From Escherichia coli O157:H7 (lineage in GTDB: Bacteria; Pseudomonadota; Gammaproteobacteria; Enterobacterales; Enterobacteriaceae): 64,000 nt of DNA. The position numbers are program-made. Within the stretch, counting starts at the first letter, position 1. Each line of letters begins with the position of its first letter. Positions 12,941 through 15,900 of this stretch are shown in pieces. The DNA lies in NCBI RefSeq assembly GCF_013167455.1, contig NZ_CP038328.1; one strand, given 5' to 3'.

Positions 12941-15900
12941 TGAGATGGAAAAAGAGCAGCTGATTGAAATAGCCAATACGATAATGCCGTTTGGCAAATA
13001 CAAAGGGCGTCGCTTAATCGACCTGCCGGAGGAGTATCTGCTGTGGTTTGCCCGCAAAGATGAGTTCCCGGCAGGGAAGCTCGGTGAGCTAATGCAAATC
13101 ACGCTGCTGATTAAAACCGAGGGGCTGACGCAACTGGTCCAGCCCCTGAAGCGTCCGCTTTAAGCTTTATCGGCGCTGCTTTCCTGCTGCGCCTGTAACT
13201 GTTCGGTCTGGCGTTTGTATCGACGCGCCAGCACCGCACAGACCATCAATTGGATCTGATGGAAAATCATCAGGGGCAGCACCATCATACCGATCACCGA
13301 TGTGGGGAACAGAATGTTTGCCATCGGGATGCCATTTGCCAGACTCTTTTTCGAACCACAAAAGACGATAGTAATTTCATCTGCCTTATTGAAGCCCAGT
13401 CGGCGTGCCATAAAGACGTTAACTACAATCACGATAGCCAGAAGAACGCAGCTGACCACCACGATAAACAGCAATGATCCCCAGCCAACTTTATGCCAGA
13501 TACCATTAACGACGGCTTCGCTGAACGCTGTATAAACCACCAACAGAATGGACGTCTGGTCAGTTTTCGCAATCCATTTTTTATTGCGCGACACCCAGTC
13601 ACCAATCCACGGCCGGGAAAGATGCCCCAACACAAACGGCAGCAGCAGTTGCAGCATAATTTTACCGACCTGCTCAAGGCTGCCCCCTGCACCGTGAACA
13701 TTCATCACCAGACCAACCAGCAATGGTGAAAGGAAAATCCCCAGCAGACTGGATGCTGACGCAGAACAAACCGCCGCCGCGACGTTACCGCCCGCCATTG
13801 ACGTGAAGGCGATTGCAGACTGCACGGTAGCCGGGAGAATGCACAAGTAGAGAAAACCGGAGTAGAGCATCGGGTCGACATTTACCGGTTTCCACCAGGC
13901 AAACAGTACACCCAGAATCGGAAACAGCACGAAGGTGCTGCACATTACCCACAAATGCAGTCGCCAGTGACCACCGCCAGCAATAATCGCCTCACGCGAC
14001 AACTTCGCGCCGTGCATAAAGAACAGCAGGGCAATAGCTGCGGTGGTCAGATTTTCAAAGAAGGGGACGAAATCGCCTCTGGCAGGAAAGAAAGAGGCCA
14101 GCAACACCACCGTGATCAGGGTTAAGGTGAAAGGATCGAGGATACGAAAAAGTTTCATAAAGACTCCAGATGATCGATGGTTCTATTGTGCTTCTTCCAG
14201 TTTGAGAAATAAAATTGATTTATTGCATCCATTCATGAAGAAAACAGATGAATTATTCTTTAAAACAATTAAAGGTTTTCGTCACAGTAGCGCAGGAGAA
14301 AAGTTTTAGTCGTGCAGGAGAGCGTATCGGCCTGAGCCAGTCGGCAGTAAGTCACAGTGTGAAGGAGCTGGAAAATCATACTGGTGTTCGCCTGCTGGAC
14401 AGAACCACGCGTGAAGTGGTGCTTACAGATGCAGGGCAGCAGTTGGCTTTGCGTCTTGAGCGACTGCTGGATGAACTTAACAGCACGTTGCGCGATACCG
14501 GGCGTATGGGGCAACAACTGAGCGGAAAAGTTCGGGTCGCTGCCAGCCAGACCATTTCCGCGCATCTTATTCCGCAATGCATTGCTGAAAGCCATCGCCG
14601 CTATCCAGATATTCAGTTTGTCCTGCACGATCGTCCGCAGCAGTGGGTGATGGAAAGTATTCGCCAGGGAGATGTCGACTTTGGCATCGTCATCGATCCA
14701 GGCCCAGTGGGCGATCTGCAATGTGAAGTGATTCTTTCCGAGCCTTTCTTTCTGCTTTGCCATCGGGATAGCGCTTTGGCCGCGGAAGATTATGTACCCT
14801 GGCAGGCATTACAGGGAGCGAAATTGGTGTTGCAGGATTATGCGTCAGGCAGCCGACCGCTGATTGACGCAGCGCTGGCGCGCAATGGTATTCAGGCGAA
14901 TATTGTGCAGGAGATTGGACATCCGGCGACGCTGTTCCCGATGGTAGCCGCAGGCATCGGCATTAGTATTCTTCCCGCACTGGCGCTACCATTGCCTGAA
15001 GGTAGCCCGCTGGTGGTAAAGCGCATTACGCCGGTGGTGGAACGCCAGTTGATGCTGGTGCGTAGGAAAAACCGTTCACTTTCCACCGCCGCTGAAGCGT
15101 TATGGGACGTGGTACGAGACCAGGGCAATACGCTAATGGCTGGGCGGGAAGGGGATCCGTTGTATCAGATATAGATACCGATATGAGTCGTATTTTCAAC
15201 AGGATTTAGAAGGGATACATTCAGAGACAAACGCTGCTCTTTCTCCTGCGCCTTTTCTGCCTGCTGTCTCTGCAACTGCGCCAGTTGTGTTTCCAGTAGG
15301 GTGATTTGCTGTTGAATCAATTCGGCCTGTTTTTGCTTGTCTTCAGCACTGCCGCTAGTGTCTACAATCTCTTTAATGTGTTGAGTGAGTTTGATGATTT
15401 GCTGACTTATCCGCGCGATTTGTGAAGCAACATCGCTACCTTGTGATGCCCTGTTACTACTCTGTGTTTGTATGGAAGGAATTGAAGTTGAAGAGATAGT
15501 GGCCATTGTTCAGTCCTCGTCACTGTACGAGGTAATATCGGCAGAAGAACAAGGAACTTGAGAAGAAAAATCAATCTTACAAATCGCAGATAGCAAAAAA
15601 GCGCCTTTAGGGCGCTTTTTTACATTGGTGGGTCGTGCAGGATTCGAACCTGCGACCAATTGATTAAAAGTCAACTGCTCTACCAACTGAGCTAACGACC
15701 CGAAGTGGTGGGTGATGACGGGATCGAACCGCCGACCCCCTCCTTGTAAGGGAGGTGCTCTCCCAGCTGAGCTAATCACCCACTTCGGTACTTCACATTT
15801 TTACAAGAAATTTAGCTGGTGAGAAAGTGGTGGGTGATGACGGGATCGAACCGCCGACCCCCTCCTTGTAAGGGAGGTGCTCTCCCAGCTGAGCTAATCA

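Follow-up and report, generated by a model that had tools for sequence, protein, structure and literature searches.

A chromosomal FlxA-like gene with a predicted sigma-28 promoter beside the lysV tRNA gene of Escherichia coli O157:H7

In a 64,000-nt stretch of E. coli O157:H7 DNA (hereafter the window), the small gene between yfeR and the tRNA gene lysV is with high probability a vertically inherited, chromosomal ortholog of FlxA, which has long resided in this slot in the Enterobacteriaceae, has a sigma-28 promoter of its own, was replaced by xap in K-12 and probably acts as a flagellar accessory. Its coding sequence (15165..15506, minus strand, ATG start, 113 aa) is supported by the ORF list, by the PGAP and Sakai annotations, by Pfam family PF14282 and by orthologs under purifying selection. 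The gene is real and had been annotated before, as WP_000201407.1 ('FlxA-like family protein') in RefSeq/PGAP and as ECs_3279 ('flxA') in Sakai, and the observation is correct but ordinary. Literature searches on ECs3279, FlxA-like genes, the FlxA protein and FlxA in culture supernatants found no study of this gene.

The yfeR-lysV interval and its two alleles

The FlxA-like gene converges with yfeR, which encodes a LysR-family regulator on the plus strand (14248..15174; ORF list, PGAP), and the 3' ends of the two coding sequences overlap by 10 nt. On the other side lies a tRNA operon (15626..16023, minus strand), in which ARAGORN and Rfam place lysV at 15626-15701 and three tRNA-Val genes at 15706-15781, 15828-15903 and 15948-16023; the anticodons assigned by ARAGORN are tRNA-Lys(UUU) for lysV and tRNA-Val(UAC) for its three neighbours. 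At a permissive threshold, Rfam returned these four tRNAs and nothing further between 15000 and 16300. From the end of yfeR (15174) to the start of lysV (15626) there are 451 bp holding a single 113-aa ORF, in agreement with the preliminary description of this DNA, which had given about 450 bp and one ORF of that length. The intrinsic terminator of the valU-valX-valY-lysV operon, a hairpin and T-run at 15595..15620 (minus strand), is the same in K-12; it was called by eye and is not listed by a simple terminator scan. The window and K-12 have a common sequence from about 15580 onward.

The preliminary description had named xapR-xapB-xapA-yfeN as the content of the K-12 slot, and these genes are indeed seen in a K-12-type genome, where yfeN, xapA, xapB, a DUF1427 ORF and xapR occupy about 4.4 kb from yfeR to lysV. 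In the window, an allele-specific segment of about 404 bp (15176..15579), delimited by junction alignments and by BLAST against the K-12 locus, is missing from K-12-type genomes. The two alleles occupy the same interval and share both breakpoints, one immediately past the yfeR stop codon and the other immediately ahead of the lysV terminator, whereas their contents are unlike: the K-12 locus encodes a nucleoside phosphorylase, a transporter, a LysR regulator and a Tsx-like porin, for xanthosine catabolism. Among 5426 complete E. coli genomes the alleles are mutually exclusive, with the flxA-like gene in 1299 (24%) and yfeN-xapA-xapB-xapR in 4072 (75%).

The preliminary description had taken the small gene for what a replacement or deletion left behind. 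On that reading, xap-yfeN was lost in the O157 lineage, the ORF is a scar or remnant (for example, a yfeN fragment) and the promoter motif arose by chance; the reduction from 4.4 kb in K-12 to 404 bp of unique sequence in O157 would fit it, as would a sigma-28 match that lies within chance expectation inside the window. However, no part of the K-12 cassette resembles the segment. When the 460-bp segment was searched by blastn (word size 7) against the K-12 and Citrobacter loci, shared flanks alone were recovered, and a yfeN remnant was rejected. Moreover, at least six other genera have a full-length ortholog (113-115 aa) at this position, in every case preceded by a sigma-28 promoter of its own, and purifying selection between genera, the promoter in 15 of 15 loci and a Pfam E value of 3.4e-13 all speak against a scar. 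The ortholog and synteny data thus refute this explanation.

It is most likely the xap(-yfeN) cassette that is the newcomer and that replaced the flxA-like gene. This direction is favoured by the phylogenetic distribution, which includes xapABR, without yfeN, at the same position in Citrobacter freundii; ancestry was assigned by parsimony from a sample that excludes E. albertii, E. fergusonii and Salmonella. The 11 nt shared by the alleles at the yfeR stop codon were considered as an indicator of allele age and are uninformative, because in every genus, Citrobacter included, these bases are under constraint from the yfeR C-terminus (Y-Q-I-stop).

Family membership, synteny and selection

The proposed resemblance to the FlxA family was borne out by both HMM and BLASTP comparison. 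The protein matches PF14282 with an i-E value of 3.4e-13 (50 bits; residues 15-92 against model positions 4-82 of 101), an assignment that is also precomputed on its homologs, and is 43% identical to K-12 FlxA (b1566) over 74 aa (E 3e-12). A word-indexed homolog search returned 8 hits and an exhaustive phmmer search was needed to reveal the family, whose alignment (A4) comprises 57 members. According to this alignment, AlphaFold2 and column counts, the window protein has the FlxA layout: its 113 aa fall within the family range of ~100-125 aa, and a low-complexity N-terminal part leads into two conserved helices rich in Q and then a C-terminal tail. The N-terminus, about 21 aa rich in Ser, Thr and Gln, is disordered (AlphaFold2 pLDDT <50 at residues 1-4 and 10-21), and is followed by a modelled antiparallel two-helix hairpin (residues 22-49 and 54-100); the tail reads I-G-I-Y-I where the family has I-D-I-Y-I/V. 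Across the family, residues 2-26 are 71% S/T/G/A/N/Q and 7% charged, with no hydrophobic run in any member, and neither a signal peptide nor a membrane segment is predicted in the 113-aa protein. An NCBIfam scan gave sub-threshold coiled-coil noise and no curated family, a PDB sequence search gave no match below E 0.1, and Foldseek comparison of the AlphaFold2 model with the PDB gave 381 generic helical hairpins, of which 0 reached E <= 1e-3; the modelled fold offers no clue to function.

The order gltX, Val/Lys tRNAs, flxA-like, yfeR, yfeH, ypeB, ligA is conserved, and full-length orthologs were found in this slot in Pseudocitrobacter, six Kluyvera species, Pluralibacter, Enterobacter hormaechei, Scandinavium and more distant relatives. 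The overlap with the LysR (yfeR-like) gene recurs as well, measuring 10 nt in Enterobacter, Scandinavium and locus L020 and 4 nt in loci L021 and L022, and it is still present in family members of just 37-50% identity; in L020 and L022, where contigs are long enough, yfeH-ypeB-ligA-zipA adjoin the gene. Between genera dN/dS is 0.05-0.18, which indicates a real coding gene, and the gene is under purifying selection at this scale.

The best-known member of the family, K-12 flxA (b1566), lies in the Qin cryptic prophage next to relBE, hokD and dicA and is near-clonal, being found at >=99% identity in 1169 of 5426 genomes. Its product and the window protein share Pfam PF14282 and are of similar size (110 versus 113 aa); they are 43% identical in the two helices, and both combine an N-terminus rich in Ser and Thr with a C-terminal I-x-I-Y-[IV]. 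The preliminary description had likened the O157 gene to a prophage-associated family, and the gene could in principle be FlxA cargo of phage origin deposited beside lysV and not a core gene. The prophage home of b1566, the existence of a phage family for FlxA (PHROG 11044) and the lower GC content of the locus (about 0.45 versus 0.52-0.57 in adjoining genes) would agree with such an origin. A tRNA gene adjoins the locus, and tRNA genes are typical integration targets. However, the match of the window protein to PHROG 11044 is weak (3.8e-8, residues 16-88), as compared with 1.8e-71 over the full length of K-12 FlxA, and the annotated neighbourhood, made up of tRNAs, gltX, yfeR and yfeH, contains no phage genes; the gene does not belong with the prophage-borne FlxA group. 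At the locus itself an integrase, any phage gene and an att-like direct repeat are absent, and no more than 404 bp are allele-specific. In addition, neither the slot nor the overlap with the 3' end of yfeR is lost across genera, even where protein identity has fallen to 37-50%, and divergence among E. coli copies reaches about 4%, whereas the prophage copy is near-clonal. We therefore regard deposition by a phage as very improbable. In contrast to the prophage cargo of K-12, the window gene occupies a core-chromosome slot kept across genera, with predicted sigma-28 dependence.

The condition of the O157 allele itself is a separate matter, as a true FlxA ortholog could be impaired or dispensable in this lineage and heading for the loss seen in three quarters of E. 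coli. Two residues of the O157 protein, H43 and G110, are unique among the 57 aligned members, the other 56 having Q/K/E (one each L, D) and D/N (two Q, one S), respectively, and G110 falls in the conserved C-terminal IDIY motif. Within E. coli dN/dS is 0.6-1.1, on account of which the O157 copy could be under relaxed constraint, although this ratio rests on very few substitutions (1-4 synonymous, 4-9 non-synonymous). In strain 1916D18 the gene is interrupted by IS1203, it is missing from 75% of E. coli, and K-12 flxA was reportedly found by Ide and Kutsukake in 1997 to be dispensable for motility. Against decay, Sakai and the window strain have the same, undamaged ORF, Shine-Dalgarno sequence and promoter, and the allele persists in 1299 genomes with divergence of up to 4%. 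On balance we consider an allele on its way to loss unlikely.

A predicted sigma-28 promoter and the leader

Upstream of the gene, on the minus strand, a -35 element TCAAGTTC (15554..15561) and a -10 element GCCGATAT (15535..15542) are separated by exactly 11 nt, and the -10 element ends 28 nt before the ATG. Compared with TAAAGTTT-N11-GCCGATAA, the pair matches at 6 of 8 positions in the -35 and 7 of 8 in the -10 element. The preliminary description had noted a -10-like element about 28 nt upstream of the ATG, in keeping with a sigma-28-type promoter, and this placement stands; its -35 element, described as weak and further up, has to be revised, since TCAAGTTC lies at the canonical spacing and contains the TCAAG form also present in the authentic class 3 flgKL promoter TCAAGTCC-N11-GCCGATAA (Fitzgerald 2014, PMC4183435). 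By itself, the match within the window is not statistically significant: TAAAGTTT-N11-GCCGATAA with 3 mismatches gives 2 hits in the whole window against 0.52 expected, and at least 2 occur in 9 of 100 shuffles. The other hit, at 33777-33803 on the minus strand, has no CGA core and falls within a 345-aa ORF in antisense orientation; it was judged to be due to chance. The significance of the promoter derives from its position before a FlxA-family ORF and from its conservation, as all 15 orthologous loci examined keep the sigma-28 motif 27-38 nt ahead of the start codon, between divergent flanks. The TCAAG of the -35 element is invariant in 14 of these 15 loci and reads TCAAC in the remaining one, and CTGCCGATA of the -10 element is invariant in alignment A3. 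The predicted promoter (15561-15535) is thus phylogenetically footprinted and, as in class 3 promoters, stands at a suitable distance from its gene.

Comparison with known class 3 promoters is consistent with this assignment. The -35 variant TCAAGT(T/C)C equals that of flgKL; unlike flgKL, fliC and tar, the window gene is not structural, motor or chemotaxis and lies far from the flagellar clusters. K-12 flxA, a ChIP-confirmed FliA target (PMC4183435), has TAAAGATT-N11-GCCGATAG placed 23 nt before its ATG, compared with 28 nt for TCAAGTTC-N11-GCCGATAT. Judging from the sequence, sigma-28 (FliA) RNA polymerase would transcribe the window gene from this class 3 promoter, and would do so only after completion of the hook-basal body and export of FlgM. 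Transcripts are predicted to start near 15528-15526, with a leader of about 22 nt containing the Shine-Dalgarno sequence GAGGA (15514..15518, minus strand; direct reading), 7 nt before the ATG. Changing GCCGATAT to GCCTCTAT would be expected to abolish the 5' end at about 15528-15526.

An alternative source of message would be the tRNA operon, with expression arising mainly by read-through from its strong promoter and GCCGATAT being irrelevant. The gene is co-oriented with lysV and starts 120 nt downstream, and the operon has a strong sigma-70 promoter (11 of 12 matches) ahead of it. However, a conserved terminator, the GC-rich hairpin followed by a T-run, intervenes between lysV and the gene, and read-through would leave unexplained why all 15 loci keep the sigma-28 motif. 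Furthermore, the Shine-Dalgarno sequence is predicted to be mostly paired in a long RNA (unpaired probability 0.14, compared with 0.44 in the short RNA). Read-through is therefore most improbable as the main route of expression, and the predicted sigma-28 promoter remains our preferred source.

The predicted pairing involves an inverted repeat, CCTCGT-N6-ACGAGG (15515..15532, minus strand; folding dG -8.6, z -2.7 versus shuffles), whose 3' arm covers the Shine-Dalgarno sequence and whose 5' arm lies at or upstream of the predicted sigma-28 start site. Folding predicts a hairpin that sequesters the Shine-Dalgarno sequence in 6 of 10 long RNAs, but the strength of the leader hairpin exceeds that of shuffles in just two cases, E. 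coli O157 (z -2.7) and a Pseudocitrobacter MAG (z -2.1), and it is absent in Enterobacter and L022. As a family-wide insulator against read-through the hairpin was accordingly demoted to a clade-specific curiosity.

Probable role of the product and significance

We consider the product most likely to be a small accessory factor of late flagellar assembly, one that is not essential and would work through coiled-coil binding. Its layout, a disordered N-terminal signal with a conserved C-terminal docking motif, resembles that of late export substrates and raises the possibility, which we put forward tentatively, that the protein is exported by the flagellar type III system. Like FlgM, FlgK, FlgL, FliD and FliC, it would be expressed under sigma-28, has a disordered N-terminus without a Sec signal, a property that is necessary but not specific for an export substrate, and carries a conserved motif at the extreme C-terminus, the site of chaperone binding in substrates. 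Late substrates bind their chaperones C-terminally, as is known for FlgN, FliS, FliT and sigma-28/FlgM. Unlike them, the window protein has no sequence similarity to any late substrate, and the likeness is one of functional analogy and not of membership.

Two published proteomic observations on FlxA bear indirectly on this idea. In one culture exoproteome, E. coli FlxA was enriched together with FlgK, FliD, FliC, FlgL and FlgM (PMC6391000); because the same exoproteome also lists cytoplasmic CheY, lysis of flagellated cells is a possible source. At 42 C, where flagellar secretion fails, FlxA protein and mRNA are regulated oppositely (PMC6551532). A broader and still more speculative proposal would be that the FlxA family comprises unrecognised late flagellar export substrates, that the lysV/yfeR copy is the ancestral core gene and Qin flxA a phage-captured derivative, and that the CCTCGT/ACGAGG hairpin silences read-through from the tRNA operon, so that only the sigma-28 mRNA is translated.

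In summary, the finding is of modest importance: what O157:H7 carries here is no island scar but the chromosomal, conserved version of a predicted FliA-regulon gene, and K-12, in which the flagellar regulon was mapped, is without this form and has the prophage paralog only. The flxA-like/xap two-allele polymorphism could serve as a lineage marker in E. coli. Being core, syntenic, under purifying selection and provided with a footprinted promoter, the window gene offers a better model for studies of FlxA, together with a concrete hypothesis, namely that FlxA may be exported via the flagellar secretion system.

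A FlxA-like gene beside the lysV tRNA operon

The only ORF in the 451-bp gap between yfeR (14248-15174, plus strand, intact in the window) and the tRNA-Lys(UUU) gene lysV (15626-15701, minus strand, with three tRNA-Val(UAC) genes and then gltX beyond it) encodes 113 aa and lies on the minus strand at 15165-15506. The FlxA-like identity proposed in the preliminary description is borne out by a match to the FlxA family in Pfam (PF14282, E 3.4e-13) and by BLASTP, which gives 43% identity to K-12 FlxA (b1566) across 74 residues. The assignment is already in public annotation, and the finding is in this respect known: PGAP names the product 'FlxA-like family protein' (WP_000201407.1), and the Sakai record, whose sequence is identical to that of the window for the ORF and its upstream region, lists ECs_3279, gene 'flxA', as 'hypothetical protein'. 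K-12 FlxA is encoded within the Qin prophage, defines PHROG 11044 (1.8e-71) and occurs at ≥99% identity in 1169 genomes, which is what a prophage that spread recently would show. The window gene, in contrast, scores only 3.8e-8 against PHROG 11044, and no phage genes adjoin it; it belongs to the Pfam family but falls outside the prophage subgroup.

The ORF and the convergent yfeR share 10 nt at their 3' ends: at 15165-15174 the same bases encode the stop codon and final three codons of the ORF (I-Y-I-stop) and the end of yfeR (Y-Q-I-stop). Enterobacter and Scandinavium keep this overlap, as do loci further removed. As no intrinsic terminator turned up for the FlxA-like transcript in a simple scan, transcription from the sigma-28 promoter may continue into yfeR in the antisense direction. 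Two 159-aa homologs from some assemblies (P0001 and P0002) are 94-98% identical over residues 1-105 and then diverge; they are probably frameshift or stop-loss alleles reading into antisense yfeR.

Strain FRIK1989 matches bases 14900-15900 at 100% identity, and Xuzhou21 does so at 99.9%. The Sakai yfeR (10445-11371 of the Sakai locus, L014) differs from that of the window at two bases and carries the nonsense change W185*, being annotated as a pseudogene; as yfeR is intact here, the window belongs to a non-Sakai O157:H7 lineage, and the gene has been inactivated in Sakai. Between gltX and yfeD, O157 genomes carry IS609 of the IS200/IS605 family (window 17698-18240 and beyond, minus strand; 6916-8557 of comparison locus L001), with a truncated tnpA and a TnpB/InsQ RNA-guided endonuclease gene; the element is missing from the K-12-type locus.

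The sigma-28 promoter and leader

Ahead of the gene, a -35 element TCAAGTTC (15561-15554, minus strand) lies 11 nt upstream of a -10 element GCCGATAT (15542-15535, minus strand), itself 28 nt upstream of the ATG. Against the TAAAGTTT-N11-GCCGATAA consensus they score 6/8 and 7/8 matches with exact spacing. Two such matches occur across the window where 0.52 are expected, which is weak statistical evidence alone, and the promoter reading is convincing because of the position and conservation of the motif. In 15 of 15 orthologous loci, (G/T)CCGATA(N) stands 11 nt after a TCAAG-type element (the spacing is 12 in one, and TCAAC replaces TCAAG in one), 27-38 nt ahead of the start codon, while the neighbouring bases vary freely. 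The preliminary description was therefore right to propose a sigma-28 promoter, but its 'weak' -35 'further up' undersells an element that sits at the canonical 11-nt spacing and is of the TCAAG type found in flgKL. The authentic K-12 flgKL promoter is TCAAGTCC-N11-GCCGATAA, and ChIP has verified K-12 flxA as a target of FliA (Fitzgerald et al. 2014, PMC4183435). In our analysis, K-12 flxA has TAAAGATT-N11-GCCGATAG 23 nt before its ATG. We found no experiments on the window gene in the literature searched; judging from these motifs, its transcription would be class 3 and FliA-dependent, so that it would be turned on with the late flagellar genes once FlgM has left the cell.

The second three-mismatch match, TAAAGTTT-N11-GCGGTAT.. 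at 33777-33803 (minus strand), is without the CGA core, lies antisense inside a 345-aa ORF (33116-34153, plus strand) and is probably due to chance.

The stretch separating the -10 element from the ATG includes an inverted repeat, CCTCGT-N6-ACGAGG (15532-15515, minus strand). The SD falls within its 3' arm, and its 5' arm is positioned no further downstream than the start site predicted for sigma-28, so a hairpin would form only in RNA reading through from the tRNA operon, blocking its translation. Kluyvera has CCTTAT...ATAAGG in the same place, which looks like a double compensatory change, and for 6 of 10 orthologs the predicted folds mask the SD when the RNA is long and leave it open when it is short. 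As a wider device, however, the SD-masking hairpin was demoted: only the hairpins of E. coli O157 (z -2.7) and the Pseudocitrobacter MAG (z -2.1) outdo shuffled sequences, and neither Enterobacter nor comparison locus L022 has one. The repeat is at best a clade-specific feature.

Two alleles and their polarity

The K-12-type genome holds yfeN, xapA, xapB, a DUF1427 ORF and xapR between yfeR and lysV, in agreement with the xap genes and yfeN named in the preliminary description. In junction alignments, the left breakpoint falls one base past the yfeR stop codon (15175/15176) and the right breakpoint at ~15580, just ahead of the lysV terminator, leaving ~404 bp specific to the window allele versus ~4.4 kb in the K-12 allele, with no similarity between the two segments. 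Among 5426 complete E. coli genomes, 1299 have the yfeR-flxA-like-lysV state, 4072 have the yfeR-yfeN junction and about 55 have other variants, including strain 1916D18, in which an IS1203 insertion splits the flxA-like gene. The first two states are mutually exclusive alleles. Downstream of lysV, an 'RtT sRNA' unit (lysV 3' end, terminator and degenerate tRNA-like spacer) is duplicated in many genomes (6990-7200 of the K-12-type locus L002; also L006, L007, L009, L015 and hit H3); as it is found with either allele and in several genera, it varies independently of this polymorphism.

In a scan of one genome per species, Pseudocitrobacter (two), Kluyvera (six) and Pluralibacter (one) yielded orthologs at 53-87% identity, all of them full-length at 113-115 aa except for one that a contig end cuts to 89 aa. 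Where the contig sufficed, the order was gltX, Val/Lys tRNAs, flxA-like, yfeR, yfeH and ypeB, and xap genes were absent from these loci. Walking outward from YfeR orthologs reached further slots: a FlxA-like gene of 113 or 114 aa with the 10-nt yfeR overlap is present in Enterobacter hormaechei and Scandinavium goeteborgense, and Citrobacter freundii has xapA-xapB-xapR without yfeN. The homologs P0131, P0136 and P0147 (37-50% identity to the query) run into the 3' end of a LysR gene resembling yfeR and, on long contigs, adjoin yfeH-ypeB-ligA-zipA and lie downstream of Val/Lys tRNAs. Parsimony makes the FlxA-like gene the older resident of the slot and the xap cassette its replacement, although within Escherichia this polarity is inferred, not shown, as E. 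albertii, E. fergusonii and Salmonella lay outside the comparison. Between genera, dN/dS is 0.05-0.18, indicating purifying selection on a real protein-coding gene; the replacement or deletion scar first suggested for the O157 interval is thus the wrong reading of a gene resident across genera.

The FlxA-like gene of an 'uncultured Pseudocitrobacter' MAG (L005, CAJYVI010000110.1) differs from that of O157 at 9% of synonymous sites, compared with 39% for Pseudocitrobacter faecalis, and its YfeR and YfeH are 95% and 88% identical to those of E. coli. These figures suggest that lineages recently exchanged the yfeR/flxA-like segment, or else that the contig is chimeric or misbinned.

The protein and a possible role in flagellar export

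The family is small: exhaustive phmmer against 1.84 billion representatives returned no more than 76 clusters with E ≤ 1e-3, almost all of them 100-125 aa long. In a 57-member alignment, the N-terminal ~25 residues, of which 71% are S/T/G/A/N/Q and 7% are charged, lack a hydrophobic signal and are followed by two conserved Q-rich helices, a variable linker and a tail G-V-N-x-P-S...I-D-I-Y-[IV]. The AlphaFold2 model has disordered ends and helices at 22-49 and 54-100, its pLDDT averaging 66 overall and reaching 75-87 in the helical core; there are no solved relatives, and Foldseek returned generic helical hairpins only. Two O157 residues, H43 (codon 15378-15380) and G110 (codon 15177-15179) of the minus-strand ORF, are unique in the alignment, the 56 other members having Q/K/E, one L and one D at position 43 and D/N, two Q and one S at position 110. 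G110 changes the most conserved C-terminal motif from I-D-I-Y-I to I-G-I-Y-I; the E. coli alleles of ABWA45 and 10035776-3 have D110 and Q43. Constraint may possibly be relaxed in the O157 lineage, the dN/dS within E. coli being 0.6-1.1 on very few changes.

The disordered N-terminal segment, as a signal, and the conserved C-terminal motif, placed where late substrates bind chaperones, would form the layout of a candidate substrate, and we tentatively speculate, while regarding it as rather unlikely, that the protein is itself among the late substrates exported by the flagellar apparatus. Ide and Kutsukake are said to have reported in 1997 that the K-12 paralog is dispensable for motility. Two indirect observations on E. 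coli FlxA would fit export. In the first, it was co-enriched in a culture exoproteome with FlgK, FliD, FliC, FlgL and FlgM (PMC6391000). The same list also contains cytoplasmic CheY, which leaves room for lysis; alternatively, the protein may be a cytoplasmic coiled-coil adaptor. In the second, E. coli FlxA protein and mRNA changed oppositely at 42 °C, where flagellar secretion fails (PMC6551532).

The finding is real, in that a FlxA-like gene, known already, and its sigma-28 promoter were correctly identified. Should it turn out that the flagellar apparatus exports FlxA proteins, there would be a modest further gain.
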